This document shows positions 12,758 through 45,215 of a stretch of 64,000 nucleotides of DNA, in pieces (positions within the stretch are counted from its first letter, which is position 1; each line of letters begins with the position of its first letter). This stretch comes from an uncultured archaeon (GTDB lineage: Archaea; Aenigmatarchaeota; Aenigmatarchaeia; CG10238-14; SCSR01): positions 42,874-106,873 of the forward strand of contig CAZEGD010000001.1 in the NCBI GenBank assembly GCA_964512235.1. Reading direction: 5' to 3'. The position numbers were made by a program, and so were the translations under genes. A model generated the notes under the pieces. That model was not told the DNA's origin and did not search any database. It saw nothing but the letters and a program-made list of their open reading frames with translations.

Positions 12758-12843
12758 GCGGGGGTCCGATAGTCTGGTCAATTCGGCTAGCTTGAGGTGC
12801 TAGTGGGTTAGTCCCTACGTGGGTTCAAATCCCACCTCCCGCA
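12758..12843 (+). tRNA. tRNA-Leu (anticodon GAG), type II with long variable arm
   Basis: Acceptor GCGGGGG/CTCCCGC. Anticodon stem CTAGC/GCTAG, loop TTGAGGT. Variable arm TGGGTTAGTCCCTAC. T arm GTGGG-TTCAAAT-CCCAC. Confidence 0.9.
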
Positions 12844-12897
12844 TTTAAAAAATCCCTTTGGAAAAGCTATAAATCTCTTCCCTTTCTCTATTATCTT

Positions 12898-13428
12898 ATG
12901 GTCAAAAAGGTAGCTGTATTAGGTCCATCTGGCTCGTTCTCAGAAGAGGCGGCTGTTGAGAGGTATGGGAAGGATATTATACTGGTCTATGGGAAGAAAT
13001 TTGATGACGTGTTAGATCTCGTGGAGATGGGAGAAGCGGACATTGCATTCCTTCCGGAACGGACTTCAGTGGGGGGACCAGTGTACCCGGTTCTTGATGC
13101 AATGTTGAACCATTCGCTTTTCATTACAGAAAAGTATGATTTCGAGCCGACATATTGCCTTGTTGGGAAGGGAGAGGAAAGTGACATTAAAAAGGTAGGT
13201 TCGCACCCACATGCATTGATTGCCATGAAAAAATATCTGGACAAAAACTTTCCAAATGCTGAAAGAGTGGAGACTCCGAGCACGTCCTTTGCTGCCCAGC
13301 TGGCATCAGAGAACCCGACATTCGGGGCCATAGCAAGCCGGACCGCGGCCAAGATATACAATCTGAAAGTGTTTTACAGTGTACAGTTCCCCCGGCCAAG
13401 GAATGGAAACGCACGCCTGAAGAGATAG
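12898..13428 (+). CDS. Prephenate dehydratase (PDT) domain protein, lacks ACT domain
   Basis: VAVLGPSGSFSEEAA...FLPERTSVGGPV...VGSHPHALIAMKKYL...FGAIASRTAAKIYNLKV resembles the PDT catalytic domain. The ORF ends ~15 aa after the PDT-like part with unrelated residues. Confidence 0.6.
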   Translation: MVKKVAVLGPSGSFSEEAAVERYGKDIILVYGKKFDDVLDLVEMGEADIAFLPERTSVGGPVYPVLDAMLNHSLFITEKYDFEPTYCLVGKGEESDIKKVGSHPHALIAMKKYLDKNFPNAERVETPSTSFAAQLASENPTFGAIASRTAAKIYNLKVFYSVQFPRPRNGNARLKR

Positions 13429-13497
13429 AATTTGGCATAAAGGTCAGATGAGTCTCAAAACATTTTTATAACTAAGAATTCCACCTCCCACATCATG

Positions 13498-14763
13498 TTA
13501 ATTTGCTTTTAATAGAATTCTTTTACCAGTGACATCATTTAGCAAATTTTGCAATTCTTTCAATTTTTCTTCTTTATCTTTTTGTAACCTTTTTCTTCTC
13601 TCTCCAATCATTTCATTCTCAATCTTAGTTTCTTCCATTCTTCTCTTTAGCTCATTAATCTCATTTTCCAATTTATTCTTTCTCTTTGGAACTTCCTGCA
13701 ATTCTATCCTTTCTTCTTGTCTTTCCAATTCCTCTGAAAGCCCTGAATATTCCTCAAGGATTTTTCCCATGGTATTGTCCTCTATCATCCTTTCAATAAC
13801 AGCCAAGAATTTGCCGCTATCCTTCAAATTCATCTTCCCCTCAATTATATTTGTTTTCATACCTTTGATGGCAGACATGAAAACTTCTCCCTTAGGATCT
13901 TTAGATAAAATGGATTCAAAGGAATGTTGTGCATAATCATCCAAAATTCTATTTTTAACAGACCATTTGTATTTCCTCAGGGGCTTTTCCACTTTTGCGA
14001 GAGATTGTATAAAGTCAGACTTTTTATTCTGCAGATTCATTTTCATTTCTTCTTTAATCCTCCGCATCTCTAAGAATGCCTTCCATTCATTGCCATCGAG
14101 TAATTTTTTCAACTCATCTTCAATTTTCTTATTCCTATCCTCCATTTCTTTCATTGTCTTCTCCAATTCCTTTGTTTCATCCTTCTTCAGCTCTTCTGTT
14201 AATCTTAATACTTCATTAGCAACCTCTTGCGTCCTTAGCAATTGCACGTTGGACTCTGCAAATTCTTTTACTATATTCCCCAGTCTCTTGTCTATTTCGA
14301 CTATCTGGCGGAAGCTCTCTATTACTTTATCTGCTTCCTTTTCGAACAATTCCTTCAAAAATGCATACTCTCTCACTGTTTTTGCGTTTATGATATTGAG
14401 TAATTTGGCAGTTTCATTATGGAAATTTAGGATAGAAGTCATGTCTTCTCCCATCGGTTTTTGTATTTGCTTGACCAGACTTTTCATCTTATTCGCAAAA
14501 CTCTTTCTGCTTCCCACAGCTTTTCTTATAAGCATGCGATCGTTTATTGTGGAATATGGAGCTTGTCCAAGAATTTCCAGTTGGTCTTGCATAGTATTGG
14601 CAGCCATCTGTAAGTTTGCATATTCCCTTTCAGCTGACTCTTTTAGAGGCTTGAAATCCTTTTTCATCTTCTCTGCTAGGAACCCTTCTACTTCTTTCAG
14701 CTGCATCTTCTCTTCTTCAAACTTTTCTTCTCTTTTTCCAAAAATTCTGTCTAACCAACCCAA
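13498..14763 (-). CDS. Long K/E-rich coiled-coil protein (421 aa)
   Basis: Heptad-like charged sequence throughout (e.g. EELERQEERIELQEVPKRKNKLENEINELKRRMEETKIENE). No enzymatic motif seen. Confidence 0.55.
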   Translation of the reverse strand: MGWLDRIFGKREEKFEEEKMQLKEVEGFLAEKMKKDFKPLKESAEREYANLQMAANTMQDQLEILGQAPYSTINDRMLIRKAVGSRKSFANKMKSLVKQIQKPMGEDMTSILNFHNETAKLLNIINAKTVREYAFLKELFEKEADKVIESFRQIVEIDKRLGNIVKEFAESNVQLLRTQEVANEVLRLTEELKKDETKELEKTMKEMEDRNKKIEDELKKLLDGNEWKAFLEMRRIKEEMKMNLQNKKSDFIQSLAKVEKPLRKYKWSVKNRILDDYAQHSFESILSKDPKGEVFMSAIKGMKTNIIEGKMNLKDSGKFLAVIERMIEDNTMGKILEEYSGLSEELERQEERIELQEVPKRKNKLENEINELKRRMEETKIENEMIGERRKRLQKDKEEKLKELQNLLNDVTGKRILLKAN

Positions 14764-14828
14764 TCCAATCAGAATTATGTAAGGTTATATAAAATAAAAG
14801 TTTATGTGTTCTGGAATGCTGTGTTGCA

Positions 14829-14852
14829 GGTTCAAATCCCACCTCCCACATT
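14829..14852 (+). repeat. Partial copy of the tRNA-Leu 3' end (T loop to acceptor end)
   Basis: ggttcaaatcccacctccc is identical to 12822-12840. One mismatch follows (a for g), then catt. Confidence 0.85.
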
Positions 14853-14932
14853 GTTTACAGCTGTAAATAAGAGTCCAATATTGCGGAAGGTAAGTTTGCT
14901 TTAAGATTCAAATTCAACTAATTAATAAGAAA

Positions 14933-15529
14933 TTAATTTCTAAAATTATATTTTTTTAAAAGTTCAGTATTTATACCTTCAATTAATAACTTTTCTTCCT
15001 CTGAAATTTCTCCTAATCTACCGATTTCAAAACTTAAAACAACTTTATTACCAACATATCTTTTAGGATGGTCAACAAATAAACTATAATATGAGAAAGA
15101 CGATGGAGAAGGCCAACTTAGTTGTTCATTTCTCGTCCTACAACTCAAAGTTACAAAAACATTTCCTCTATGCATTATAGCTTTAGCAATTTCTTCTGGA
15201 TTTTCTGTTTTAGCAGCCACATTTTTTATTTCAAAATTTACTTTTTCAAGATACTCTACAATTTCAAATAATTCATCTCGAAAATCTTTTTCTAATTCTT
15301 TTTGAACAGTTAATGCTGGAGTTGGCATACCTCTTGGACCAGGTGCATAAAGAACTCCGTCTTCAAATTTTATTAATTTCTCTGGTTCACCTTTTCCTCT
15401 TACATTAAAGCGTCCATACTGGAGAATGTCTGCAGAAAAATACCCAGATTTTCTACCTTCATATAAGATTTTAGGATATTCAACATGGCTTTGACCAGTA
15501 GTTAGTAAAGTACTTGTTTCTGCACCCAT
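14933..15529 (-). CDS. Hypothetical protein (198 aa) in a very AT-rich cassette
   Basis: ORF only. My hand count for 14941-15000 is 10 G+C of 60. Confidence 0.45.
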   Translation of the reverse strand: MGAETSTLLTTGQSHVEYPKILYEGRKSGYFSADILQYGRFNVRGKGEPEKLIKFEDGVLYAPGPRGMPTPALTVQKELEKDFRDELFEIVEYLEKVNFEIKNVAAKTENPEEIAKAIMHRGNVFVTLSCRTRNEQLSWPSPSSFSYYSLFVDHPKRYVGNKVVLSFEIGRLGEISEEEKLLIEGINTELLKKYNFRN

Positions 15530-15652
15530 ATTATCAAATTAATAAAGAACAGTTAAAGATTTATATATTTCCTCTAAGACCCCTTAGAGAAATCTTAAAT
15601 CTTTTCAAAACAATATAACAAAAAAGACGCACCGTACTTTTTGTTCTGTGCT

Positions 15653-15665
15653 CACCTCCCGCATT
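15653..15665 (+). repeat. Second partial copy of the tRNA-Leu 3' end
   Basis: cacctcccgcatt is identical to 12833-12845. The following gttt is shared with the flank of the 14829 copy. Confidence 0.7.
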
Positions 15666-15718
15666 GTTTTTTAGTTCTACATCAAGTTCAAGGTGGGCAT
15701 CCTAAAGAAAGTATCCTA

Positions 15719-16120
15719 TTATCCTTTCAATAGTATTTCCAACTTCATCCTTCTAAGCATCCTAGACCTTTTACCGGAGAAGATGTACAGTTCCTTTCCA
15801 TCATCAATTTCATAGAATCTGGTATTAGAGTAGTTCCCTATCACATGGTTCTGAGGATTATACTGGTTAAGGACCCTTTTGATTTTTTTGACTTCCTCGG
15901 GATACCTTGTTTTTTCTGAACCGAATCTAGGAAATGATACCTGATTTGTAGTGACGAGCAACTGAAAAGTGTACAAAAAATCTTCATCTGTAAAAGCCTT
16001 AAAAACTGAACTATCCCTGAAATCGGAATAACTTACCTCTAGATAATGTTTGTCCAGCTCATAGATTATTAGCCCCTTCAGGTCGAATATTTTATCTCCC
16101 ATATACGAGAATTCTTTCAA
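15719..16120 (-). CDS. Hypothetical protein (133 aa)
   Basis: ORF only. Confidence 0.4.
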   Translation of the reverse strand: MKEFSYMGDKIFDLKGLIIYELDKHYLEVSYSDFRDSSVFKAFTDEDFLYTFQLLVTTNQVSFPRFGSEKTRYPEEVKKIKRVLNQYNPQNHVIGNYSNTRFYEIDDGKELYIFSGKRSRMLRRMKLEILLKG

Positions 16121-16156
16121 TTAAATCTTAAATATGTAACATCCCTCGTAATATCT

Positions 16157-16882
16157 ATGCTGACCCAAGAAGAGTTGAATAAATCCTATATGAGGAGCGG
16201 TATATCCTCTGCTAAGATTTATGCACATATATGGGAATCTTTCTCAAGAGATAATGGAAAGACAAAACCAAGAGGATATTTGAGCCTATCACCTTCGATA
16301 GAGAGTTACGTTTTAGCGCAAGTTGGACATCTGAATAAGAAATTAGAGTGGAGTTCTATTGGTAAGGAAATCATGTCATTCTTCAAATGTTATCCATATT
16401 CTCCAGAGAATGTTCTAAGTTTGGGCTGTGGTATTGGCAATGGTTTAAAGACTGTGAAAAAATATGGAAGTAAACTACTTGTGGGAATTGACGTGGGTCT
16501 TCCGGTATTAAAATTGGCCAAGTCAAACTTGCCAGACGGAGATTTTGTATGTGCATCCTCCACTCATTTACCTTTTAGAGATTCAGTTTTCGACACGTTT
16601 ATAACTGGACATTTTTTTGAACCTATGACCAATCGGGAATCCAGATTTACATTTGAGGAAATCAAAAGATGCTCCATAAAAAATTGTCTATGGTTTGTTT
16701 CAGTCGAAGGGGAAGAGATTTTTGAAAGTTATCATATACAAAAATTCGGTAAGGGTGGGTGGGGTGTTATTCACAAACATCCATATATAAGCAAAGTTTC
16801 CCCAGTACCGGGTTCGGATTATAGACTGTGTGGTGCCGAATTTTTAGTCTTAAAGTCATTATACAGTGGTAATGATGAATGA
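16157..16882 (+). CDS. Class I SAM-dependent methyltransferase
   Basis: Motif I-like LSLGCGIGNG. Then GIDVGLPVLKLAK, then LPFRDSVFDTF (Methyltransf_11-like layout). Confidence 0.6.
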   Translation: MLTQEELNKSYMRSGISSAKIYAHIWESFSRDNGKTKPRGYLSLSPSIESYVLAQVGHLNKKLEWSSIGKEIMSFFKCYPYSPENVLSLGCGIGNGLKTVKKYGSKLLVGIDVGLPVLKLAKSNLPDGDFVCASSTHLPFRDSVFDTFITGHFFEPMTNRESRFTFEEIKRCSIKNCLWFVSVEGEEIFESYHIQKFGKGGWGVIHKHPYISKVSPVPGSDYRLCGAEFLVLKSLYSGNDE

Positions 16883-17222
16883 AAAGAAACTCATTCCAAT
16901 AGAGGACGCTTGGGACACCCCGCTCATATTTTATATTTACTTTGAGGGTGGAGTTGAAGAATACTACAATATTCCAAGGGACAAGAGAAGGGAATTCAAT
17001 AAAAAGTTTAAAAAAGAATATACCCCAAATTCAACCAGTTCAACTGTTCCAGACATTTCAATTGTCCGAAAGTTGTGTAGAAAATACGGGTCCTTTATGT
17101 TAAAGTCGCAGTTTGAAAAGCTGTCTACACTACCTGTAGGAATTTCGACTACTGGTAGAGAAGGGTATAGAAAATACGTAGTAATGGGATATAAAGTACC
17201 CAAAGATGAAGAAAACATTTGA
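16866..17222 (+). CDS. Hypothetical protein (118 aa)
   Basis: ORF only. Overlaps the preceding gene by 17 nt on the same strand. Confidence 0.35.
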   Translation: MVMMNEKKLIPIEDAWDTPLIFYIYFEGGVEEYYNIPRDKRREFNKKFKKEYTPNSTSSTVPDISIVRKLCRKYGSFMLKSQFEKLSTLPVGISTTGREGYRKYVVMGYKVPKDEENI

Positions 17223-17287
17223 ACATTACGAATGCTATGCAATCCTCAAAGGAACATATTTAAATCCAATGACTACTAGTTGATTTT

Positions 17288-17530
17288 ATGAAAGACGAGG
17301 AAAAAGAGAAAGATGTAAAACTGGGAGAGTTTCAACTCAAGCAAGATTCCGTCCTTGTGATAAAGAAGACCACATACAAAGGCAATGAAAGGATAGACTT
17401 TCGCGTGTGGAAGAACTCACCAACATACAAAGGCCCAACTAAGCAGGGGTTTGTTCTGCAGATGGACCAAATAGACGATTTCATAGAGATGATAGAAGAG
17501 ATGAAGGGAAAGTTGAAAGAAGTGGAATAA
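17288..17530 (+). CDS. PC4/Sub1-like ssDNA-binding fold protein (80 aa)
   Basis: VLVIKKTTYKGNERIDFRVWKNSPTYKGPTKQGFVLQMDQIDDFIEMIEEM follows the PC4 C-terminal-domain pattern (KG..hDhR.W....+PTKKGhsL...Q...h). Recognised by eye only. Confidence 0.45.
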   Translation: MKDEEKEKDVKLGEFQLKQDSVLVIKKTTYKGNERIDFRVWKNSPTYKGPTKQGFVLQMDQIDDFIEMIEEMKGKLKEVE

Positions 17531-17536
17531 ATCTGT

Positions 17537-18772
17537 CTAACGTTTTTTCTTCTTTGAATTGTTTGCATTTCTGTGATCCAACACAGCCCTGTATAAGCCA
17601 CGTCTTAGAAAAGCCACACCTACAGTCGTAATGACTATGCTCGTTATTATGACTATTATTATCAAATCCGTATAGGTCTCCGCATTGGCTATGCCGTAAT
17701 TGAGAGGTATCTGCGTAAGGACAGCTGCTGCCAGACCTCTAGGTATCAAAGCACTCATCAGCTTCTTCTCGGCGGAGAATATACCTGCTTTTATTGTTGA
17801 TGCATAGACTGCTAGGAATCGCATAACCAGCAAAGCAACAGTGAGGATTATGCCGAAAATTATTATATTCAAGCTTCCAACTGTCAACAGTACTCCCAAA
17901 TAGACGAAGAAGAATGTCCTTATCAGAAATGCAACTTCCCTGTGGAACCTTTGCACATTTTTGTCGATTATTATCTTTCTCCTTATCTTGAGCATCTTAG
18001 ATATGTTCAAAGGATTTGCAATCACAACTCCGAATATAAGTGCCGCTATCGCTCCGCTACCGCCTACGCTTTCAGTGAAAGAGTACAATAAAAGCAATAG
18101 TGCAAGAGTAAGCATGTATTCGAAAGGCTTTCTTTTGAATGTAGTAAGGAGGAATATTGCTACTATACCGGTGGCAAATCCCAGTATGGCACCTATGGAG
18201 AAAGAGCCCAGTATCCTGTTTGCAATCTCAGTAGGTACGTATGTCCCATACACTATCAATTCTGCCACTACAATTGCCAATATTATACAGAGAGCATCTG
18301 TAAGGGTGGATTCGATATTGAGAAGCGTCTTTACTTTTTCATCAGCCTTTACTTTAGAAGTTATGGAGAATATTATCGGCGAGCTCGATCCTCCGAGTAT
18401 TGCTCCAAGGAGAACTCCATTGAGCAAAGGCCACTCGAATGCATACATCATGAAAAACCCAGCTGCTGCCATGGAGAGCAAGATAGTCATTGTTGCGAGA
18501 AGTATTGAACGTGGCGATTCCCTTATGAGCATGAATATATTTGTATTCAAGCCACCCTCAAAAAGAATAATCATTATGGCAAGTGATGTAAAGAATGGTA
18601 TGGCAGCTGCGAACATAGATGGATCTATTACATTAAATACTGGGCCTAAAAATATGCCAAGAAGTACGAGCCATATTATGTCTGGTATCATAGTTTTTTG
18701 GAAGAAAAAATTGCCTGCAAATCCTAGGAGTATCACCAAAGCGACTGCTGCAAATGCAATAAGCACTATCAT
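17537..18772 (-). CDS. Cation:proton antiporter (Na+/H+ exchanger family)
   Basis: About 11-12 TM segments. The strings FEGGLNT and PRGLAAAVL are typical of CPA1 exchangers. Confidence 0.75.
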   Translation of the reverse strand: MIVLIAFAAVALVILLGFAGNFFFQKTMIPDIIWLVLLGIFLGPVFNVIDPSMFAAAIPFFTSLAIMIILFEGGLNTNIFMLIRESPRSILLATMTILLSMAAAGFFMMYAFEWPLLNGVLLGAILGGSSSPIIFSITSKVKADEKVKTLLNIESTLTDALCIILAIVVAELIVYGTYVPTEIANRILGSFSIGAILGFATGIVAIFLLTTFKRKPFEYMLTLALLLLLYSFTESVGGSGAIAALIFGVVIANPLNISKMLKIRRKIIIDKNVQRFHREVAFLIRTFFFVYLGVLLTVGSLNIIIFGIILTVALLVMRFLAVYASTIKAGIFSAEKKLMSALIPRGLAAAVLTQIPLNYGIANAETYTDLIIIVIITSIVITTVGVAFLRRGLYRAVLDHRNANNSKKKKR

Positions 18773-18872
18773 TTTATCAGCACTTTATCTTCTTATTGAA
18801 AATTTGTGAACGTTGGAATAAAAGCATGCCGAAATGTATTAAAGTCTCATATCACTCTTAATTCTTGGTAAT

Positions 18873-19358
18873 ATGCCAATACGAGATTATTGGAGAGGAA
18901 GAAAATTCTCAAAGAAGCCGCTCTGGTGGAGAGAAGAATTTCCAGATAAGCGACTTGGTAGAAAGTCATATAATAAGACTAAGAAAGAACAGCGTGAACG
19001 GGAAGTGAAGTATGAAGCCAACCCATACCTTCTTAGGAAATTCGGCATATTGTTTGGGGACAACCACGTAAAGTTTGAATATCTTTATTATTCTAAGCAC
19101 AGCATAGTTTCCGACACTGCAATAAAGTTATACGAGAGTTTCGTAGAGATGTATAGGGGTTCATCGACTCTGTCTACCAAGGACGTCAAGGAAAGGGCGC
19201 GCGAAATAATTGAAGGCGTGTCTGAAAATTTGGAAAACTTCAGGCTATGGCATTCTGACAATTGTAATACCTGCCCTGAAAACGCGTACAACTGCGAGGG
19301 TTGGCAATTGCTGCACCTGGTTAGGCACATATTTGACCAAGAAGAAAGTGACATATAG
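18873..19358 (+). CDS. Hypothetical protein (161 aa)
   Basis: ORF only. C-terminal CNTCPENAYNCEGW cluster. Confidence 0.35.
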   Translation: MPIRDYWRGRKFSKKPLWWREEFPDKRLGRKSYNKTKKEQREREVKYEANPYLLRKFGILFGDNHVKFEYLYYSKHSIVSDTAIKLYESFVEMYRGSSTLSTKDVKERAREIIEGVSENLENFRLWHSDNCNTCPENAYNCEGWQLLHLVRHIFDQEESDI

Positions 19359-19422
19359 AAAATGAATCAATTTTAGCTTCGTACACATTAACTTTTTAAA
19401 CCTCGACAAGCAAAGGATAATT

Positions 19423-19689
19423 ATGGCAGAAGGATCTGGGAAAAAGAAGCTTGTAGGCAAGATTGATCATTACTATACAAAGATAGGTGTTGCCGTAATC
19501 GAACTCAGCGGTGCTTTGGCAGTAGGCGACAAAATAAGCATAGAGGGTGCTACTACTAATCTGCAACAGGACATAGACTCTATGCAGGTAGAACATAAAT
19601 CTGTAGATTCTGCAAAGAAAGGCGACAGCATAGGATTGAAAGTTACCGATAGAGTAAGACCAGGTGACAATGTCTACAAAGTTGCTTAA
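19423..19689 (+). CDS. Small EF-Tu domain-2-like beta-barrel protein
   Basis: VGKIDHYYTKIGVAVIELSGALAVGDKISIEG...VDSAKKGDSIGLKVTDRVRPGDNVY resembles the translation-factor domain II fold. Confidence 0.5.
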   Translation: MAEGSGKKKLVGKIDHYYTKIGVAVIELSGALAVGDKISIEGATTNLQQDIDSMQVEHKSVDSAKKGDSIGLKVTDRVRPGDNVYKVA

Positions 19690-20539: not shown

Positions 20540-20633
20540 GCCTCAGTAGCTCAGTTAGTGAGAGCACCACACTGGTAATGTGGAGGTCGCGGGTGCGATT
20601 CCCGCCTGAAAGTCTGAGACTTGGTGAAAGGCT
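20540..20633 (+). tRNA. tRNA-Thr (anticodon GGU) whose 3' acceptor strand is interrupted by 20 nt
   Basis: GCCTCAG-TA-GCTC...GAGC-A-CCACA-CTGGTAA-TGTGG-AGGTC-GCGGG-TGCGATT-CCCGC-CTGA[aagtctgagacttggtgaaa]GGC-T. Without removal of 20610-20629 the acceptor stem cannot form. Confidence 0.7.
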
Positions 20634-20715
20634 CTCTCCGCGACTTTATTTAGTGGTTCAAATATCAACCTCGACGTAAGGAGGATTTAAATCTTTTGTT
20701 CTATTTAGTTTCTAT

Positions 20716-21066
20716 ATGAAAATCAGATGTTTGTATGGTTTGGCACCATTAGTAAAATTCAAATCTTATGCAGTTGCTCACCCAGAAACCAATACTATTG
20801 TTTTGTATGAACATTTGAGAGGATTACCAAAACCAATTAAAAAAGTTATTGTTGCGCATGAAGAAATTCATATAAGATTTCCATGGATAAAACATGAAGA
20901 ATTTGGAGATTTAGATCATATGTTAATAGAAACTATTGCATCATTAGATTCAACTAACCCTATAGATTATGTACATATGTCAAAGGTACTTAATGAAGAA
21001 CTTTTAGAATGGTGTTATAAAAAATACCAGCAAGATTTTAAATTTAATAAAAGCCCTCAAAAATAG
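20716..21066 (+). CDS. Small HExxH protein (116 aa, putative minimal metallopeptidase)
   Basis: VIVAHEEIHIRF contains HEEIH. It is the only ORF between the tRNA-Thr gene and the downstream copy of its 3' end. Confidence 0.4.
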   Translation: MKIRCLYGLAPLVKFKSYAVAHPETNTIVLYEHLRGLPKPIKKVIVAHEEIHIRFPWIKHEEFGDLDHMLIETIASLDSTNPIDYVHMSKVLNEELLEWCYKKYQQDFKFNKSPQK

Positions 21067-21079
21067 AACCTTTGTACAC

Positions 21080-21097
21080 ATTCCCGCCTGAGGCTCT
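21080..21097 (+). repeat. Uninterrupted copy of the tRNA-Thr 3' end
   Basis: attcccgcctgaggctct equals 20598-20609 plus 20630-20635, that is, the tRNA 3' end without the 20-nt insertion. Confidence 0.85.
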
Positions 21098-32231: not shown

Positions 32232-34523
32232 ATGCCTTACAAATTTATAAAATGGTTCGACGAGCTGACAAAGAATGACGTACCTATAGTCGGTGGCAAG
32301 ACTGCGAACCTTGGAGAGATGATAAACAAGACTAAAGTGCCAGTACCGGCAGGGTTTGCAATCACTGCTAAAGCTTACCGCTTCCATATTCTATGCAACA
32401 ACCTTCAGACAAAGATGGAGAAAGCCCTCGAAGGATTGGATACGCATGACGTAAAAAATCTGGCTGAACGCGGACAGAAAATACGTAGACTCATAAGTGA
32501 TGCAGAATTGCCATTGCAATTGAAGAAAGAGATTATCAAAGCGTATGAAGAATTGGCGGAAAAACTGAAGGCCAAGAAACTCTATGTTGCAGTGCGTAGC
32601 TCGGCTACGGCAGAAGACCTGCCGGGTGCGAGCTTTGCTGGACAGCAGGAGACCTATCTGAATGTCACAGGCAAGGAATTGTTGCTTAAGCGCGTGAAGG
32701 ACTGCTTTGCCTCGCTATTTACAAATCGGGCAATAAGCTACCGTGAAGACAAAAGTTTTGACCATTTCAAAGTCGCTCTCAGCGTGGCTGTGCAGAAGAT
32801 GGTGAACAGCAAGTGCGCGGGCGTTGCATTCACAATCGACCCTGATAGCGGACATGAAAATTTTATCATGCTCAATGGCAGTTGGGGACTGGGTGAATAT
32901 ACAGTTCAAGGAAAGGTCAACCCGGACACATTTCTCGTTTTCAAACCGACTCTTGCAGTGATTGAGAAGAACCTGGGAGATAAAAAGCTGAAACTTGTGA
33001 GGGGAGACAAGGAGAATAAAGAAGAAAAAGTACCGGACTCAGATAGGAAAAGATTCGTGCTGAGCGATTATGAGATAAAAGGATTGGCAGAATACTGCAT
33101 GGCTATTGAAGACCACTATAAAATGCCCATGGACATAGAATGGGGCAAGGATGATGATGGCAAGATGTACATACTGCAGGCGAGGCCGGAGACTGTGCAT
33201 GCGATAAAGAAGAATATAATCGAAGTCTATGAACTGACAAGCCGTGGTAGTGTCTTGGTAAGGGGAGGAGCTGTCGGCCGCAAGATTGGTCAAGGTGTTG
33301 TAAACGTCATAGAGGATGCAGGCGATATTAGCAAATTCAAACCGAAACAAGTACTTGTGACTGACATGACCGATCCCGACTGGGAACCGATAATGAAGGT
33401 TGCTTCGGCAATTGTCACCAACCGCGGCGGTCGCACCTGCCATGCGGCAATCGTCTCACGGGAGCTTGGTATACCTTGCATAATCGGCACGCAGAATGCC
33501 ACTAAAGTCTTGAAAAACGGCCAAGAGGTAACAGTCGTATGCGCAGAAGGCGAAGGCAAGGTCTATGAAGGCTTGCTAAAATTCAAGAGAAGGGAGGTAG
33601 ACATAAAAGAGGTGCCAAAGACTAAGACTAAGATTTATGTAAACCTAGGCATACCCGACCAGGCTCTGAGTGTGGGGAGACTGCCCGTGGACGGTGTTGG
33701 TCTGGCCCGGCTGGAGTTCATAATCAATTCCTACATCGGCGTCCATCCGCTCCACATGATAAAAAACCGCAAGTCTCAGTTGTTCATAGACAAACTTGCT
33801 ACAGGTATAGCAAAGATCGCTGCCTCTTTCTATCCGCGGCCGGTGATTGTGAGGCTGAGCGATTTCAAGAGCAACGAATATGCCAATCTGGAAGGCGGTG
33901 AGAAGTACGAACCTCAAGAGAGCAATCCAATGCTTGGATGGAGGGGTGCGAGCCGCTACTACGATCCTAAATTTCTGCCCGCATTCAAACTAGAGTGCAA
34001 GGCATTAAAGAAAGTGAGGGATGAATACGGGTTGACAAACGTGAAAGCAATGGTGCCTTTTTGCAGGACACCTGAAGAAGGCAGGCGAGTGATTTCAATA
34101 ATGGAAGATGAGGGATTGAAGCGAGGCAAGAATGGCTTTGAAGTTTGGTGCATGGCCGAGATACCGAGCAATGTCATACTTGCGGACGAGTTCAGTAGAG
34201 TCTTTGACGGCTTCAGCATAGGCAGCAACGACCTTACACAGCTTACGCTTGGCTTAGACCGCGACAGTGAACAAGTTGCACACTTGTTTGACGAGCGTGA
34301 TGAAGCTGTAAAACAGATGGTGAGTCAGCTCATAAAGACTGCGCACAAGCATGGCAAACCTGTGAGCATTTGCGGGCAAGGCCCTAGCGATTTCCCAGAA
34401 TTTGCAGAATTTCTGGTGCAAGAAGGTATAGACAGCATTAGCCTGAATCCGGATGTTGCATTGCGGACTAAAATAGATGTAATTGCACCTGCTGAGAAAA
34501 AATTGGAAAAACGACCAATATAA
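32232..34523 (+). CDS. ppsA: Phosphoenolpyruvate synthase (pyruvate, water dikinase)
   Basis: GGKTANLGEM. Phosphohistidine segment TNRGGRTCHAAIVSRELGIPCIIG. C-terminal PEP-utilising domain GFSIGSNDLTQL. Confidence 0.93.
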   Translation: MPYKFIKWFDELTKNDVPIVGGKTANLGEMINKTKVPVPAGFAITAKAYRFHILCNNLQTKMEKALEGLDTHDVKNLAERGQKIRRLISDAELPLQLKKEIIKAYEELAEKLKAKKLYVAVRSSATAEDLPGASFAGQQETYLNVTGKELLLKRVKDCFASLFTNRAISYREDKSFDHFKVALSVAVQKMVNSKCAGVAFTIDPDSGHENFIMLNGSWGLGEYTVQGKVNPDTFLVFKPTLAVIEKNLGDKKLKLVRGDKENKEEKVPDSDRKRFVLSDYEIKGLAEYCMAIEDHYKMPMDIEWGKDDDGKMYILQARPETVHAIKKNIIEVYELTSRGSVLVRGGAVGRKIGQGVVNVIEDAGDISKFKPKQVLVTDMTDPDWEPIMKVASAIVTNRGGRTCHAAIVSRELGIPCIIGTQNATKVLKNGQEVTVVCAEGEGKVYEGLLKFKRREVDIKEVPKTKTKIYVNLGIPDQALSVGRLPVDGVGLARLEFIINSYIGVHPLHMIKNRKSQLFIDKLATGIAKIAASFYPRPVIVRLSDFKSNEYANLEGGEKYEPQESNPMLGWRGASRYYDPKFLPAFKLECKALKKVRDEYGLTNVKAMVPFCRTPEEGRRVISIMEDEGLKRGKNGFEVWCMAEIPSNVILADEFSRVFDGFSIGSNDLTQLTLGLDRDSEQVAHLFDERDEAVKQMVSQLIKTAHKHGKPVSICGQGPSDFPEFAEFLVQEGIDSISLNPDVALRTKIDVIAPAEKKLEKRPI

Positions 34524-38254: not shown

Positions 38255-38293
38255 ATTAGATAAGTCCAGATTTGCAATTAATTATTGAGAAGT

Positions 38294-38773: not shown

Positions 38774-38821
38774 GACCTATGCAACTCAACGAACTTCTCT
38801 ATCGATCTATCGTATGTACGC

Positions 38822-39316
38822 TCATCTTTTCAAGACTTTCATAAATCTTTCAGGATGCGATGGCGTTATCAAATAATGCCTGCCGCCTTTTGCAGTTATT
38901 ATCAATCCGTCCCTTAAGTTTGTTATTATTGTCCTTGTCCATCCTAGACTTGGAATGTAAAATCTGCCAGAATAGAAGCTCGCACCGACTCTGAAATAGA
39001 ATGGGGTTAGAGTTCTTTCAACTTTTTTAATGTCTTTCAGCTTGAGTCTTATGATTGCAAATGGCGACCAGGACGTCAATATCCCGTCTTTCACGACATA
39101 CTTTGTTCTATAAAGACTTAGAGTCGTGGCGATTAGCAGTATTGTAGTGAAAGACATGACAGCTATGGTTATAACTTGTGATGGCATTGAGGAAGAATAA
39201 ATAAGAGTAAAGAGAGAAATCCCAAGAAATACGGAGATGACAAGAATTGATAATGTTATATACATGCCACCTATCCATTTACTGATGTATGGTTTGTTGA
39301 CAATTTTCTTTGGCAT
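38822..39316 (-). CDS. Membrane protein with bacterial-PH (DUF304-like) domain
   Basis: Two N-terminal TM segments, then YRTKYVVKDGILTSWSPFAIIRLKLKDIKKVE. Confidence 0.45.
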   Translation of the reverse strand: MPKKIVNKPYISKWIGGMYITLSILVISVFLGISLFTLIYSSSMPSQVITIAVMSFTTILLIATTLSLYRTKYVVKDGILTSWSPFAIIRLKLKDIKKVERTLTPFYFRVGASFYSGRFYIPSLGWTRTIITNLRDGLIITAKGGRHYLITPSHPERFMKVLKR

Positions 39317-39464
39317 AATTACTATATTCTAATAGGATTTTAAAAACGCCGAGGGTGGACGCTGTACAACTTGTACAGAGCCTAAAGTTCGGTGTAAAAT
39401 CAAAAAGAATATTAAATACAGAAAGATAATAAACTTTTTAAATTCAAAATCCACCTTCTTAAAT

Positions 39465-40589
39465 ATGGTGTTCACAACATTAGAAGATGGGAGGATAAAA
39501 TACCAAGGGAATAAGTTATTTCCACCTATCGATGATATAAAAAGTAGAAATTTAGCCGTAGAACATATAGAAAATAGAATACATAGTATAAAAACCAATC
39601 AAATGTGGGAAAAAATAACTCTTATAAATGACATTATCTTCAAATCTACAGTTGACTTTTTCTCTTCTATAGGAGCAAAATTCATTCCTTTACCACTTAC
39701 AACAAAAATGATATCTTCTCCGGGAGCTGTTTATGGAAAGAAAAAAATCAATTATACAACTGATACAAAACCAATAAAGTTAAAATGGTTCAATTTATCT
39801 GAACCTGTCTTTCTGTCAGAATCTTCACAAATATACCTAGAACTTGTTCTTCTACAAAATAATATCGACCATGTTTTTTCTATTTATAACTCTTTTAGGA
39901 AAGAAGAAGCAGATACTACTCACCTATCGGAGTTTCATCATATAGAATACGAAGGACACGTCACACAGGAAAAAAACTTGGAAACGATAGAAAGTCTTGT
40001 GAAAACTATTTTAAAAAATATTCTAAAGAAAAAATATCTTTTAGAGTTTTTCCTAGAAGAAGGGGATATAAGAAATTTGGAAATCCTTGCAAAGGATCAC
40101 TTTATCCAAATAAAATTTAAAGACGTTCTAAGAATGTTATACGAGGAGACAAAAGATGAAAAATACAAGAAATTTACAACTAAGTATTTTGGATTTTGGG
40201 AAGAAGTTAAGATCACAGAAATATTGGGTAATAAAATAGTAGTTATCAAAGAGTTTCCATTATTAGAAACGGCGTTCTACCATGCACCAAAAGTTGTTGA
40301 TGGAGTACAAGTTGCAAACAATGCTGATATAATATGGCCTAGTTATAAGGAATTTGTAGGAAGTGGACAACGTGTAGGAACACTAAAAGAACTGATGAAA
40401 AAAGCAAAATTTTTCACTCTACCAAAAAAAGATTATGAACCATATTTACAATCCAGAAGATACGATGACTATAAAATAAGTTCTGGATTTGGAATGGGCT
40501 GGGAAAGATTATTACAAGGTTTACTTAAAATGCCTACCATAATATCAGTTTGTCACTTTCCAAGAATCCACGATAAAATGATACCCTAA
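39465..40589 (+). CDS. AsnRS/AspRS-like class IIb catalytic core without anticodon-binding domain (AsnA-like)
   Basis: Motif 1 region GAKFIPLPLTT. LSESSQIYLEL. Motif 2 VFSIYNSFRKEEADTTHLSEFHHIEYE. EFVGSGQRVGTLKEL...YEPYLQSRRYDDYKISSGFGMGWERLL parallels the AsnRS pattern GEIIGGSQRE...YWWYLDLRRYG..PHSGFGLGFERL. No OB-fold N-domain. Confidence 0.7.
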   Translation: MVFTTLEDGRIKYQGNKLFPPIDDIKSRNLAVEHIENRIHSIKTNQMWEKITLINDIIFKSTVDFFSSIGAKFIPLPLTTKMISSPGAVYGKKKINYTTDTKPIKLKWFNLSEPVFLSESSQIYLELVLLQNNIDHVFSIYNSFRKEEADTTHLSEFHHIEYEGHVTQEKNLETIESLVKTILKNILKKKYLLEFFLEEGDIRNLEILAKDHFIQIKFKDVLRMLYEETKDEKYKKFTTKYFGFWEEVKITEILGNKIVVIKEFPLLETAFYHAPKVVDGVQVANNADIIWPSYKEFVGSGQRVGTLKELMKKAKFFTLPKKDYEPYLQSRRYDDYKISSGFGMGWERLLQGLLKMPTIISVCHFPRIHDKMIP

Positions 40590-40643
40590 TTAAGTTATTA
40601 TTTTTAACTATCAATTAATTATAATTCAGAGGATGATTATACT

Positions 40644-41684
40644 ATGAAATTGATTAAACCACCTTCATTGCAAAAAGGGGATAGTATAGCTATAGTAGCT
40701 CCCTCTTCTGGTTTAGCTGCTTTATTTCCTCATCGTTTGGAAAGAGCTGTAAAGTTTTTGGAAAAAATTGGTTATAAAATAAAGGTTTTTCCGACAGCTC
40801 GCTCTATAAAGAAATGGAGTTCGGGGAGTCCTAAGGAAAGGGCATGCGATATAAACAATGCATTTGAAGACAATGAGGTTAAAGCTATAATATGTTCCAT
40901 AGGAGGTATAGTCGCGAATCAGACACTCAAATACATTAATTTTGATATTATAAGGAAGAAGCCAAAAATATTTTGCGGGTACTCGGATATCTCAGTTCTA
41001 CATTATGCGTTTCATACAGTCGCCGGTTTAGTCACGTTCTACGGTCCTTGTGCAATGACCCAATTTGGTGAATATCCTGAACCATTAAAATATACAGTAA
41101 ACCACTTTGAAATGGCTGTAGGGAATAACAAACCTATCGGTAGAATAAACCCCTCTGAAAAATGGACAGATGAAGTGTTGGATTGGGCTAACAAGTTAGA
41201 TATTGAAAGACCAAGAGGGCTAAAGACTAACTCAGGATTTCAATGGTTACGTGAGGGTAAGGTTTCTGGCCGTGTAATGGGGGGGTGTATATCTTCTATT
41301 GTACATCTCCGTGGAACCAAATTCTGGCCGAATCAAAAAGACCGAATATTTTTTATAGAAATTTCAGAGGGTCAAGAGTCTTCTAGTGGTGAACCACTCT
41401 CATACGTGGATTCATATCTGACAAATCTTGAAATTTCAGGTGTCTTTCAAGATATAAATGGTCTTATAGTAGGTAGACCCTTCAGGTACACCAATGAAGA
41501 TACAGAGGAATTAAAAAGGATAATTTTAGAACAAACAAAAGAGTACGATTTCCCAATTTTATTTGGTGCGGACATTGGTCATACGGATCCAATGATAACA
41601 ATACCACTAGGAACTAAAGTAGAGTTAGATTCGAACTCTAATAGCTTTGTTTTTCTAGAATCTGGAACATCAAACAACCTTTGA
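40644..41684 (+). CDS. S66-family LD-carboxypeptidase / MccF-like serine peptidase
   Basis: GDSIAIVAPSS. Nucleophile elbow FCGYSDISVLH. C-terminal FGADIGHTDPMITIPLG (Ser-His-Glu family layout). Confidence 0.8.
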   Translation: MKLIKPPSLQKGDSIAIVAPSSGLAALFPHRLERAVKFLEKIGYKIKVFPTARSIKKWSSGSPKERACDINNAFEDNEVKAIICSIGGIVANQTLKYINFDIIRKKPKIFCGYSDISVLHYAFHTVAGLVTFYGPCAMTQFGEYPEPLKYTVNHFEMAVGNNKPIGRINPSEKWTDEVLDWANKLDIERPRGLKTNSGFQWLREGKVSGRVMGGCISSIVHLRGTKFWPNQKDRIFFIEISEGQESSSGEPLSYVDSYLTNLEISGVFQDINGLIVGRPFRYTNEDTEELKRIILEQTKEYDFPILFGADIGHTDPMITIPLGTKVELDSNSNSFVFLESGTSNNL

Positions 41685-41733
41685 CTCATGGGAATAGAAA
41701 GACATTAATCCTTTTGGGTATATGACTTAACTT

Positions 41734-42864
41734 ATGAGAGTTTCGAGTCTAATTGGACACAAAATAAAAACGAGGAAGAAGTTTGATGATCTTGCAGAGC
41801 TTTTGACCAGCAGTTTTTTAGTAGAAACCTCTTTTTTCGACAACGATGGCTACAAAGGCCTTATAAAATTATCCATTGAAAAGTCTGTAGAGAATAATCT
41901 AGAAGCGTTGTTGAAAGAGCTAATGCAGAGAAGTGGAATACAACCAATTGAGTTGCCTACACTTCAACCTTATAATATTTTTGAGACTACTGATAGGATA
42001 GAAAAGTTTGGTAGAGAATTTGTGTCCACTACAGACGATAGGGTAGTTTTTCCCACATCAGAAGAACCCATAATCAACTATCTGGGCCGATTTGCAAACT
42101 TGTCATACAGAGAATTACCGATGTTAGTTTACCAATTTAAAAACTTCTTCAGGGCAACAACTCCGAAAGCCCTTATACGTCTACAAGAGTTTAAAGTACT
42201 TGATATATACAGCTTGAATGAAACTGAGGACTCCCTGAGAGAAACAATAAAAACAATAATAGAACCGATGTTTTTCCAACTGTGGGAAAGGCTAAACCTC
42301 AAAACAATACAACTGAAGAAAGATGAAAACTACATAGACATAAAAGTAAAGACAGCAGAAGGAAATGATACGATACCTAAAACTGGCGAAAGATGTCTAG
42401 GAATTGGCGTAATAATGAACCTTGGCAACAACTATTCAAAAAAATTTGGATTGGGGGTTGCCGATTCTTCTAATAACCTAGTGTATCCGTATCTTGGATC
42501 CTACGCTATAGGGATAGAACGGTTGATTTATGCTATGGTAGACCAAGGAAGAACAAAATCAAAAGGGGTCAACACTATTAAATGGCCTGAAGGAATCGAA
42601 CCTGTAACTTATTATGTTATAAAAATAGGAGAAAGCAATTATGGTGAAAAAATATATAAAGAACTTATTTCTAGAAATAAAAGAGTTCTATTGGATGATA
42701 GTAAAGACACTTTAGGAACAAAATTCGCACGGGCCTATGCCATAGGAGCACCATACATCATTAGTGCTGGCCCAAAAGAAGAGTCTAGAAAGATTGTAGG
42801 TATTGAAGAAAGTTACACAGGTGAGAGATGGGAAATAGAGTTTGATAAACTATTGTGCATGTGA
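41734..42864 (+). CDS. Divergent ProRS-like class IIa paralogue (motif 2 degenerate)
   Basis: LPTLQP, FPTSEEPI, SYRELPMLVYQFKNFFRATTPKALIRLQEFKVLDIYSL (compare YQF..KYRDE..R.GLFRTKEFLMKDAYSF in the next gene), GSYAIGIERL, and a HGTP-type anticodon-binding domain YYVIKIGES...LLDDSKDTLGTKFARAYAIGAPYIISAGPKE. Confidence 0.6.
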   Translation: MRVSSLIGHKIKTRKKFDDLAELLTSSFLVETSFFDNDGYKGLIKLSIEKSVENNLEALLKELMQRSGIQPIELPTLQPYNIFETTDRIEKFGREFVSTTDDRVVFPTSEEPIINYLGRFANLSYRELPMLVYQFKNFFRATTPKALIRLQEFKVLDIYSLNETEDSLRETIKTIIEPMFFQLWERLNLKTIQLKKDENYIDIKVKTAEGNDTIPKTGERCLGIGVIMNLGNNYSKKFGLGVADSSNNLVYPYLGSYAIGIERLIYAMVDQGRTKSKGVNTIKWPEGIEPVTYYVIKIGESNYGEKIYKELISRNKRVLLDDSKDTLGTKFARAYAIGAPYIISAGPKEESRKIVGIEESYTGERWEIEFDKLLCM

Positions 42865-42869
42865 ATACT

Positions 42870-44132
42870 ATGAGAAGGTCACAACTTTTTACACCAACAG
42901 GCAAAGCCGATGAGAGAGAAATGCTTAGTCGAAGTCTGGAATTAAGTTTGAGGGGTGGCTTTGTTCGCCAGACAGGTTCTGGCCTTTATAGTTATACACC
43001 CACAGGTGTCAGGGTTCTTTATAATATATCATCTCTTGTCAGAAAGGAAATGAATAATATTAATGCACAGGAAGTACTTCTTCCATCCTTACAGCCAGCA
43101 GAGTTGTGGAAGGAGAGCGGTAGATGGGAAGTATACAAAGGTAGTATATTTACTATCCAAGATAGCCAAAACAAGAAGTATTGTCTAGCCCCAACATGCG
43201 AAGAAGCCATGGTAGATCTTGTGAGGGGTAATGTCAGATCATATAAGAACTTGCCACTAACCTTATATCAGTTCAGCCAGAAGTATAGGGATGAAAAGGT
43301 AAGACAGGGTCTCTTCAGAACAAAAGAATTCTTAATGAAAGATGCTTATAGCTTCCATTTTAGTGAGGATGACCTCGATAAGACGTATCAGAAGATGAGG
43401 CAGGCATATACTAACATCTTTGAAGAACTAGAACTGGATTTCTTCTTATCTTCAGCCGAGACTGGTGAGATGGGAGGGAAAAGGTCTGAAGAACTTATTG
43501 CCTTGACGGATGTTGGAACAGACAAGTTCGTTGTTTGTTCACAGAAGGAATGTCATTTTGGAAGCCCCATAGATAGTGGTATAAAAGAGTGTTCTATCTG
43601 TGGTAGAGACTTGCAACTGAAAACAGGTATTGAATTAGCTCACTTGTTCAAGTTGGGAGACCGATACAGTAAACAAATGGATCTAACCTTCGCTGACAGA
43701 GATGGTTCGATAAGATATATGGAAATGGGTTGTTATGGGATAGGGATTAGCAGACTAATCCCAACAATAATAGAACAGAACAATGACGAAAAAGGTATAA
43801 TATGGCCAGAAAATGTGGCTCCATTTAAAGAAGTTATTATTCCTACAAGCCAAAAGAAGTCAAATCTCGCTAGACTCTCTAATCAGTTATACTATGAGCT
43901 GAACGAAAAAAGATTAGATCCGTTGTTGGACGATAGAGATGTTTCAGCTGGCACAAAATTTGCTGAATCTGATTTGATGGGGATTCCAAGAAAAATAATT
44001 ATAGGTCCTAAATCCTTGGCCAAAGGTAAGATAGAGGTGGAGCATCGTAGAGGCGGTAAAGATTTTTTAGAAATTGAAAATTTCGTTGCAGAATATATAA
44101 AAAAGTATTATTTAGGACATACAACTGCCTAA
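42870..44132 (+). CDS. proS: Prolyl-tRNA synthetase, bacterial-type architecture without INS editing domain
   Basis: MRRSQLFTPTGK...GSGLYSYTPTGVRVL...LLPSLQPAELWKESGRWEVY...LAPTCEEAM...SYKNLPLTLYQFSQKYRDEKVRQGLFRTKEFLMKDAYSF...MGCYGIGISRL...DDRDVSAGTKFAESDLMGIPRKIIIGPK. The track start 42855 is a GTG 5 codons upstream. Confidence 0.75.
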   Translation: MRRSQLFTPTGKADEREMLSRSLELSLRGGFVRQTGSGLYSYTPTGVRVLYNISSLVRKEMNNINAQEVLLPSLQPAELWKESGRWEVYKGSIFTIQDSQNKKYCLAPTCEEAMVDLVRGNVRSYKNLPLTLYQFSQKYRDEKVRQGLFRTKEFLMKDAYSFHFSEDDLDKTYQKMRQAYTNIFEELELDFFLSSAETGEMGGKRSEELIALTDVGTDKFVVCSQKECHFGSPIDSGIKECSICGRDLQLKTGIELAHLFKLGDRYSKQMDLTFADRDGSIRYMEMGCYGIGISRLIPTIIEQNNDEKGIIWPENVAPFKEVIIPTSQKKSNLARLSNQLYYELNEKRLDPLLDDRDVSAGTKFAESDLMGIPRKIIIGPKSLAKGKIEVEHRRGGKDFLEIENFVAEYIKKYYLGHTTA

Positions 44133-44188
44133 GATGTTGATAAAGTAATAATAAATTTATTGTAAACTTACAAACTCATATTATAGAA

Positions 44189-45013
44189 ATGATAAATATG
44201 TCAAGAGAAATCACACCAGCTAGTATAAAGGACATGTCCTATATAGATTTTATGGCTTTTCTCAATGAGACCAACAAACCGCCAGGAGGAAAGAAATCAC
44301 TAATAGATGTAGCTCAACTATGCTTCTTGAATAAGGACAAGAAAGTTCTTCATGTAGGTTGTAGTACTGGATATTCGACCTTTGAACTTAACCGATTAAC
44401 AGGTTGTAAAATAGTAGGGATAGACATCAGTTCCAACATGATTAAAAGAGCCAATGAGAAAAGAGAGAAAGATATGAATAGAACCAATGTAACATTTCGA
44501 GTTGCCGATGCCACAAAATTTCCTTTCGAGGACAATACATTCGATGTTGTGTTTTCGGCGGGTGCTACAGCTTTCTTTGAGGACATACAAAAAGGAGTAG
44601 CTGAATGCAAACGTGTTGTTAAACCATGGGGCTTCATGGTCGATGTAAACTTCTATTATAAGAAAGACCCACCGCAGAGTTTGATAGATGAATTGAATAA
44701 GACTATGGATATCCACATAAAAAAACGGAGTAAGGAAGATTGGATAAGAATATACGAAGATGCCGACCTGGATGTTTATTATATTAAAGATGGAAAAACA
44801 AAAACTGTTACGAAAGAGCAAATAGAAGAATACGCAGAAAAAACCGCTAGGAGAGTGACCTCTGGTTCAGAAATCATAAAAACGATAAAGGAAAAACTGA
44901 TACCCATAATGGAGCTTTTCAATAGAAACAATGAGTACTTAGCATACTCGATATTCATCTTTCGCAAGCACCCTGACGAAGAGCCTAAAGATATCTACTT
45001 GTTTGAACCTTAA
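44189..45013 (+). CDS. Class I SAM-dependent methyltransferase
   Basis: Motif I VLHVGCSTGYST. GIDISSNMIKRANEK. FDVVFSAGA. Confidence 0.7.
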   Translation: MINMSREITPASIKDMSYIDFMAFLNETNKPPGGKKSLIDVAQLCFLNKDKKVLHVGCSTGYSTFELNRLTGCKIVGIDISSNMIKRANEKREKDMNRTNVTFRVADATKFPFEDNTFDVVFSAGATAFFEDIQKGVAECKRVVKPWGFMVDVNFYYKKDPPQSLIDELNKTMDIHIKKRSKEDWIRIYEDADLDVYYIKDGKTKTVTKEQIEEYAEKTARRVTSGSEIIKTIKEKLIPIMELFNRNNEYLAYSIFIFRKHPDEEPKDIYLFEP

Positions 45014-45132
45014 CCAAATATTTTTCAAGAATACAATTAGTTCAACGCCTACTCAACATTCTATTTCCAATTTTCAAAAAATTGAGCTAGATGCTGATTT
45101 GACAGCAAAAACTAAAGAATTGAAAAATTCTA

Positions 45133-45215
45133 CGCCGAGGGTGGGATTTGAACCCACATGGGCAAAGCCCGCTGGTTTTCAAGACCAGTGCACCACCTGG
45201 TTATGCGACCTCGGC
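45133..45215 (-). tRNA. tRNA-Ser (anticodon UGA), type II
   Basis: Acceptor GCCGAGG/CCTCGGC, discriminator G. Anticodon stem CTGGT/ACCAG, loop CTTGAAA. Long variable arm CGGGCTTTGCCCAT. T arm GTGGG-TTCAAAT-CCCAC. Confidence 0.9.

Follow-up and report, generated by a model that had tools for sequence, protein, structure and literature searches.

Cargo that is bounded by recombination sites, arranged in tandem units and without a recombinase in cis is familiar from bacteria, where it occurs in cis-mobilizable elements (CIMEs) and in clusters of attC sites lacking integron integrases (CALINs). The sites are in these cases the att sites of integrative and conjugative elements (ICEs) or the attC sites of integrons, for which mobilisation in trans has been shown. 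Here we describe a 64-kb stretch of DNA (contig CAZEGD010000001.1, positions 42,874 to 106,873; the window in the following) from an uncultured archaeon of the Aenigmatarchaeota, in which three tRNA genes are followed by cargo and then by displaced copies of their own 3' end. What these loci have in common with CIMEs and CALINs is site-bounded cargo and tandem units.

In archaea, tRNA fragments are known as scars of integration; this is a general process, with examples from the Thermococcaceae (PMC9897764). Different sublocations of the tRNA gene serve as targets (Williams 2002 and Reiter 1989, as cited in PMC9897764). Archaeal elements of the SSV and pNOB8 types are bordered on one side by a complete tRNA gene and on the other by a partial 3' copy on the same strand; they accrete in tandem at one tRNA gene and carry cargo of atypical composition (PMC9897764). 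The loci described here resemble them in all these respects. Unlike them, they have no integrase, neither whole nor split, and no other hallmark gene of mobile elements. They are also smaller, with units of 0.44-5.8 kb compared to about 9-23 kb and repeats of 13-24 nt compared to about 44 nt (PMC9897764). For the tRNA-Thr(GGU) gene of Caldiarchaeum subterraneum, the gain of an intron at the att site through integration has been described (Sugahara et al. 2012, PMC3293823). In the model proposed there, recombination between an intron-bearing attP and an intron-less attB provides the tRNA gene with an intron, leaves an intron-less fragment on the other side of the insert and protects the gene from further integration (PMC3293823).

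Displaced tRNA 3' ends in the window

When introns were allowed, ARAGORN found seven tRNA genes in the window (Table 1); with default settings ARAGORN gave six, as did Rfam, and tRNA-Glu was missed. Behind three of the seven, tRNA-Leu(GAG), tRNA-Thr(GGU) and tRNA-Ser(UGA), there is cargo and, beyond it on the same strand, a copy of the gene's own 3' end; such copies lie downstream only. At all three loci the borders are those of a tRNA-targeted element: the intact tRNA gene is proximal, and the same-strand partial 3' copy is distal. The repeats end at the 3' end of the tRNA or 1-3 nt beyond it, and 6 nt beyond it in the two distal copies of tRNA-Leu. They enclose cargo of 0.63, 1.34 and 0.80 kb at tRNA-Leu, 0.44 kb at tRNA-Thr and 5.77 kb at tRNA-Ser. 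For the tRNA genes of Ala, Ile, Glu and Gly, no copy of the terminal 13-mer with up to two mismatches was detected across the whole window.

In this window, a random 11-mer recurs on the same strand within 10 kb downstream at a frequency of 0.0075, and a random 13-mer at 0.001. The chance of an exact match to the terminal 11-mer in three of seven tRNA genes is thus about 35 × 0.0075^3, i. e. about 1.5e-5. This confirms that the copies are real and beyond chance. With it stands the claim of a first-pass annotation of the window that three of seven tRNA genes carry downstream duplicates of their 3' end around cargo.

At tRNA-Leu that annotation had listed two copies. Our repeat search, done with the last 22 nt of the tRNA gene plus two nucleotides of its trailer as the reference (12822-12845), gave three; the additional one is copy 0 at 13477-13493, located in a 69-nt intergenic gap between two ORFs. 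Copy 1 is identical to the reference at 23 of 24 positions (14829-14852). Copy 2 matches it at 18 of 24 positions in register (15642-15665), with 13 exact nucleotides at 15653-15665, and over its whole length CACCTCCCGCATTGTTT (15653-15669) it is identical to copy 1 at 16 of 17 positions. The three copies are linked by shared differences from the tRNA gene. Copies 0 and 1 have 13 exact nucleotides in common, among them an exchange G71->A that is present neither in tRNA-Leu nor in copy 2, and the trailer TTGTTT is common to copies 1 and 2. This pattern fits serial recombination with diverged attP variants and does not fit duplication in place. We therefore infer that diverged attP variants may be behind the differences between the Leu copies.

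The displaced Ser copy CCACCCTCGGCGT lies 5.77 kb downstream of tRNA-Ser in the gap between a PH-domain (bPH) gene and the Ser island. It coincides with a boundary in G+C content at third codon positions (GC3) and with a junction that is polymorphic in the population (see below).

Table 1. Positions of the tRNA genes, the displaced copies of their 3' ends and the enclosed cargo in the 64-kb window (ORF, open reading frame; GC3, G+C content at third codon positions; BHB, bulge-helix-bulge)
Feature	Position	Strand	Remarks
tRNA-Ala	10235-10308	-	ARAGORN
tRNA-Ile(GAU)	10379-10467	+	ARAGORN; 13-nt intron
tRNA-Glu(UUC)	10513-10634	+	ARAGORN with introns allowed; 47-nt intron at canonical position; missed by Rfam at gathering threshold
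tRNA-Leu(GAG)	12758-12843	+	ARAGORN, Rfam; intact
Leu cassette 1	12846-13476	+	truncated prephenate dehydratase, ORF 12898-13428; PDT domain only, no ACT domain; GC3 0.51
Leu copy 0 AATTCCACCTCCCACAT	13477-13493	+	15/17 to tRNA, 16/17 to copy 1
Leu cassette 2	13494-14828	-	421-aa coiled-coil ORFan, 13498-14763
Leu copy 1 GGTTCAAATCCCACCTCCCaCATTGTTT	14829-14856	+	T-arm through 3' end, 1 mismatch
Leu cassette 3	14857-15652	-	198-aa ORFan, 14933-15529; GC3 0.12, markedly atypical in the window
Leu copy 2 CACCTCCCGCATTGTTT	15653-15669	+	most distal and most decayed copy
tRNA-Thr(GGU)	20540-20633, two exons	+	ARAGORN
tRNA-Thr exon 1	20540-20608	+	ARAGORN, spliced call
Intron, 20 nt, non-canonical AAAGTCTGAGACTTGGTGAA	20609-20628	+	tRNA position 68/69; BHB-like fold
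tRNA-Thr exon 2, AGGCT	20629-20633	+	splicing would give complete 74-nt tRNA-Thr
Thr cargo, 444 nt	20636-21079	+	116-aa ORF 20716-21066; HExxH motif; GC3 0.17
Displaced tRNA-Thr 3'-end copy ATTCCCGCCTGAGGCTCT	21080-21097	+	18 nt, without intron
Displaced tRNA-Ser 3'-end copy CCACCCTCGGCGT	39346-39358	-	13/13 to 45132-45144(-)
Ser island, 5.77 kb	39359-45131	+	five same-strand genes; GC3 0.24-0.37
AsnRS-like catalytic core	39465-40589	+	no anticodon-binding domain
S66/MccF-like peptidase	40644-41684	+	
Divergent ProRS paralogue	41734-42864	+	overlaps next ProRS
Bacterial-type ProRS	42855-44132	+	TIGR00409, 473 bits, above cut-off
SAM methyltransferase	44189-45013	+	
tRNA-Ser(UGA)	45132-45216	-	ARAGORN, Rfam; intact; also delimited as 45133-45215
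tRNA-Gly	55293-55368	-	ARAGORN

The tRNA-Thr gene and its intron

The displaced copy of tRNA-Thr, which lies 6 nt from the stop codon of the adenylosuccinate lyase gene, is contiguous (21080-21097). In the tRNA gene the same sequence is in two parts, ATTCCCGCCTG (20598-20608) and AGGCTCT (20629-20635), which when joined match the copy at 18 of 18 positions. The intervening nucleotides can form a bulge-helix-bulge (BHB) fold with their flanks: a 4-bp helix (CGCC/GGUG) lies between two 3-nt bulges, UGA on the 5' strand and AAA on the 3' strand, and there is an inner 5-bp helix (AAGUC/GACUU). With its weak outer helix the structure is of the relaxed form. The archaeal splicing endonuclease reads the BHB, and we used the rule that it cuts after the second nucleotide of each bulge. 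Applied to the Thr precursor, this rule joins CCUG to AGGCU and restores a perfect 7-bp acceptor stem. The spliced 74-mer is called by ARAGORN as a full tRNA-Thr(GGT) with a canonical cloverleaf. Thus the 20-nt insert, as predicted from its fold, is an intron, and the gene, which had been described as only near-intact because of the 20-nt gap, is intact, with a BHB intron at position 68/69 inside the 18-nt att core.

In contigs of two related metagenome-assembled genomes (MAGs), in which the order from pyrH to tRNA-Thr is kept, the tRNA-Thr gene has no intron. The intron is thus derived in the lineage of the window. The locus is like that of Caldiarchaeum in that the same isoacceptor is affected, an extra non-canonical intron lies in the att region and an intron-less fragment stands across a short insert. 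The Caldiarchaeum mechanism would therefore fit this tRNA-Thr locus by analogy. The two differ in orientation and content. In Caldiarchaeum the fragment comes from the 5' part of the tRNA and lies upstream, with the intron at 24/25 and a recombinase gene on the insert of 1.8 kb. In the window a 3' fragment stands downstream, the acceptor stem holds the intron at 68/69, and no recombinase is encoded by the 444-nt insert. The intron would have arrived with an intron-bearing attP or would have been gained later. As it splits the att core and the displaced copy is without it, attL and attR would no longer match; this would lock the insert in place and remove the target.

The tRNA-Thr locus adds a second natural example, as a mirror image on the 3' side, of an intron that lies in the att core while an intron-less twin survives nearby. 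It is relevant to the long-held view that the introns of archaeal tRNAs originate from the integration of mobile elements or protect against it.

Two further observations concern this locus. The left end of the Thr cargo (20654-20677) contains, on the cargo strand, GGTTCAAATATCAACCTCGACG, a degenerate fragment that resembles the 3' end of tRNA-Ser (18 of 22 positions; about 0.03 expected by chance across the window) and could be what is left of an att site from a former residence at a tRNA-Ser gene. The T-loop of tRNA-Thr (20593-20599) reads TGCGATT, with a G at the normally invariant U55, and in the related MAG contig L010 (near 6330) it reads TCCAAAT, with C55. As far as their sequences go, the T-loops of this isoacceptor appear unusual in the lineage.

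Cargo genes, missing recombinases and population variants

The composition of the cargo is atypical. Its GC3 values are 0.12-0.37, lowest in the 198-aa and 116-aa ORFs, with a borderline value of 0.38 for the coiled-coil gene and the dehydratase fragment as an exception; the flanking housekeeping genes have about 0.36-0.57, mostly above 0.40.

Pfam detected no tyrosine or serine recombinase, transposase or Cas1 among the roughly 66 ORFs of the whole window, nor did PHROGs, NCBIfam and PADLOC among the cargo ORFs. The description of the cargo as integrase-less in the first-pass annotation therefore holds. In particular, neither a pNOB8-type integrase beside a tRNA gene nor an SSV-type integrase split across the repeats is present in the cargo or in the roughly 66 ORFs, and a relaxed Pfam search (E<=10) with the ORFans and the small ORFs across the repeats gave no similarity to integrases. 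Since the cargos are nearly filled by the genes listed in Table 1, there is little room for a decayed int gene, and a split one could persist only as a very small remnant.

The four ORFans (421, 198, 133 and 116 aa) have no match in the family libraries that reaches a curated cut-off, and no similarity to one another. The 198-aa ORFan has three relatives among 1.84 billion representatives; its AlphaFold model has a pLDDT of 43 and is unusable. For the 116-aa protein a single homologue was found (66% identity; contig L026, 7362-7691), which follows PRC-barrel and PqqD-like genes in another organism and is not at a tRNA gene. The homology of the L026 DNA covers the promoter region (GGATTTAAATCTTTT...) and stops before the att sequences. 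The HExxH motif of the 116-aa protein is VAHEEIHI; together with the genes in front of the homologue, this may indicate a small metallopeptidase connected with peptide maturation. In viral contigs, neither two of the ORFans nor the Leu att sequence had a match. Matches to the Thr att 18-mer were to unrelated GC-rich viral contigs only.

Short metagenome contigs from several samples reproduce the junctions of the window at 99.8-100% identity. Look-ups with the bPH protein, the agmatinase, the 116-aa ORF, the 241-aa methyltransferase and an 88-aa protein returned only contigs at least 99.8% identical to the window, and the Leu and Thr junctions are identical in all contigs recovered. Exact-protein look-ups of pyrH, adenylosuccinate lyase and the 198-aa ORF gave no match, probably because of the choice of start codon or fragmentary contigs. 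At tRNA-Ser the picture is different. Contig L002 (Ga0315537_1156238) is 99.8% identical to the window through an SSB-like OB-fold gene (SSB) and tRNA-Ser, leaves the window sequence within about 10 nt of the end of tRNA-Ser and continues into unrelated DNA with a radical-SAM gene. This alternative DNA behind tRNA-Ser shows that the site is polymorphic within the population. A population-level presence/absence comparison, which had been proposed as a check on the duplicates, gave one alternative junction, at tRNA-Ser, and no empty site.

In the different DNA of L002 (529-1030), the radical-SAM gene (motif CxxxCxxC) starts 200 nt after tRNA-Ser, and a homologue search with its partial protein gave no match. 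The spacer in front of it contains GTTCAAAT, possibly another T-loop relic.

More distant relatives keep the order of genes upstream of the sites. In genome contigs, pyrH has relatives at 51-53% identity only; in these the synteny upstream of tRNA-Thr is kept and the DNA downstream differs. With Cbf5, relatives at 65-71% identity were found in metagenomes. The order Cbf5, SSB, tRNA-Ser is kept in them and the DNA downstream is different, the spans past tRNA-Ser being too short or too divergent to reveal an empty site or an integrase.

Origin of the displaced copies

We consider it likely that the repeats are relic attR-type scars of successive site-specific integrations whose recombination modules were lost or are encoded elsewhere. 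Elements with an attP that matches the 3' part of a tRNA gene would have integrated by site-specific recombination, and each integration would have rebuilt the tRNA gene and displaced the old 3' end downstream. At tRNA-Leu, at least three successive events would have produced the tandem array, the oldest and most decayed copy being furthest away; at tRNA-Thr and tRNA-Ser one integration each would suffice. What remains would be captured cargo, mostly single genes and one five-gene operon. The recombination modules would have been deleted or would never have been in cis, so that the units are probably non-autonomous now. Both the mechanism of integration and the loss of the integrases are what we infer here. 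The presence of a bacterial-type ProRS within an archaeal chromosome speaks for this origin.

As relic tRNA-linked islands these loci are a known kind of feature, and the core finding is ordinary: scars of tRNA ends without an integrase are a routine sign of past integration. What the window adds are borders, precise to the base, of five captured units from an archaeal lineage that has been little studied; the genomes closest to it, at about 52% pyrH identity, are Aenigmatarchaeota MAGs.

Several points weigh against an origin from integrated elements. Four of the five units are compact single genes, and a series of deletions that each leave one gene, although possible, would not obviously be expected. 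At 13-24 nt the cores are short when compared to the 44-bp archaeal examples, and the dehydratase fragment has a host-like GC3 of 0.51. No integrase, int fragment, replication, conjugation or capsid gene was found in the cargos (Pfam, PHROGs) or in the roughly 66 ORFs of the window (Pfam), so that the assignment to mobile elements relies on scars and composition. No true empty site was found at the Leu, Thr or Ser locus, the other metagenome contigs matching the window, and among the contigs and relatives no integrase-bearing occupant was recovered at any of the three loci.

The units could instead, as the first-pass annotation had also considered, be active, att-bounded cassettes without an integrase of their own that are moved in trans by a recombinase whose gene lies at another place in the genome or on a helper element. 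This is rather unlikely, even though the alternative cargo behind tRNA-Ser in a 99.8% identical background is compatible with it. The compactness of the units, the tandem array of three single-gene units at tRNA-Leu, the lack of an integrase within 64 kb and the occurrence of the 116-aa gene with its own promoter region in a different context in L026 also agree with it. However, the att pairs are imperfect, as the Leu copies are mismatched and the intron interrupts the Thr core, and the homology to L026 ends short of the att sequences. Moreover, the unit ends have no arm-type motif in common beyond chance, and no circular form, empty site, helper element or, in viral contigs, matching attP was found. 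In a bolder form, the units would be live cassettes, mostly single genes with their own promoters, which a recombinase encoded elsewhere would insert at tRNA 3' ends, stack there and exchange. This would be an integron-like, tRNA-anchored system in a DPANN-type archaeon, in which tRNA introns were imported or selected to lock or shield the sites; we regard it as unlikely, and slightly more so than movement in trans as such. The Leu array is not an integron by the usual marks: intI is missing, an agmatinase gene lies upstream of tRNA-Leu, and the repeats are tRNA ends, not structured attC hairpins.

Decay of SSV-type elements had been offered as an explanation in the first-pass annotation. In such elements integration splits the integrase gene ('gene capture'), and here the halves would have eroded afterwards. 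Such partitioning predicts both a target at the 3' end of the tRNA and a locked state without an integrase (PMC3293823; PMC7253208). In SSV-type proviruses, however, the int(N) and int(C) frames contain the repeats. Here the ORFs at the repeats are short and have no similarity to integrases, the adjoining genes code for a dehydratase fragment, a coiled-coil protein, ORFans, a methyltransferase and an AsnRS-like protein, and no int(N) or int(C) fragment was found in cargos that are filled by other genes. Such decay is thus improbable. The same annotation had also considered a recombinase of an unrecognised family among the ORFans, acting in cis. The four ORFans leave room for it insofar as they have no significant family-library match, and yet we found no support for it. 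They are mutually dissimilar and the Ser island contains no credible ORFan, which makes a hidden recombinase family unlikely. In addition, the 421-aa protein is coiled-coil throughout, the 198-aa protein has hardly any relatives, and the only homologue of the 116-aa protein is not at a tRNA gene. Taken together, a recombinase among them is very improbable. Chance, finally, is already refuted for the Leu and Thr copies in general, and it could be invoked at least for the 13-nt Ser copy and the distal Leu copy. Stray matches of 11-13 nt to internal tRNA segments do exist in the window, for example an Ala 13-mer at 33814, and a Leu-like 13-mer with two mismatches at 52298 is clearly due to chance. 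The Ser copy and the distal Leu copy are significant because of their position and strand and not because of their length: the matches are terminal, on the same strand and downstream, with a joint probability of about 1e-5. As the Ser copy also falls on a GC3 boundary and a polymorphic junction, and the distal Leu copy agrees with copy 1 even in its trailer, coincidence is extremely improbable.

Whatever their origin, the units carry some unusual genes. The Ser island combines a peculiar set of aminoacyl-tRNA-synthetase paralogues with an MccF-like peptidase at a site that is polymorphic in the population. Its bacterial-type ProRS (425 aa) matches the short 437-aa ProRS model and seems to be without the editing insertion. 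The tandem of ProRS paralogue and ProRS also occurs in the metagenome contig L029 (41% identity), and a tblastn search of plasmids with the paralogue returned generic ProRS matches only. One might speculate that the operon confers immunity to a synthetase inhibitor of the aminoacyl-adenylate type or takes part in the synthesis of one.

At the unit ends, perfect palindromes were noticed directly after Leu copy 1 (TTTACAGCTGTAAA, 14854-14867) and 3 nt before the Ser copy (CTGTACAAGTTGTACAG, 39362-39378), and TTGTACA precedes the displaced Thr copy. A shared motif of the cassette ends (TTGTACA / CTGTAAA palindromes) was considered and rejected, as a common 7-mer is expected by chance (p about 0.1).

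Beyond the last Leu copy, the region 15719-17530 contains ORFans of 133 and 118 aa, a methyltransferase gene of low GC3 (16157-16882; 0.31) and a PC4-like protein of 80 aa. It may represent an older island, with a distal border that can no longer be detected. Between two of its small ORFs, Rfam gave a weak match to C/D-box snoRNAs (17202-17286, plus strand; 29.6 bits, E = 0.72), which could be an archaeal C/D sRNA.

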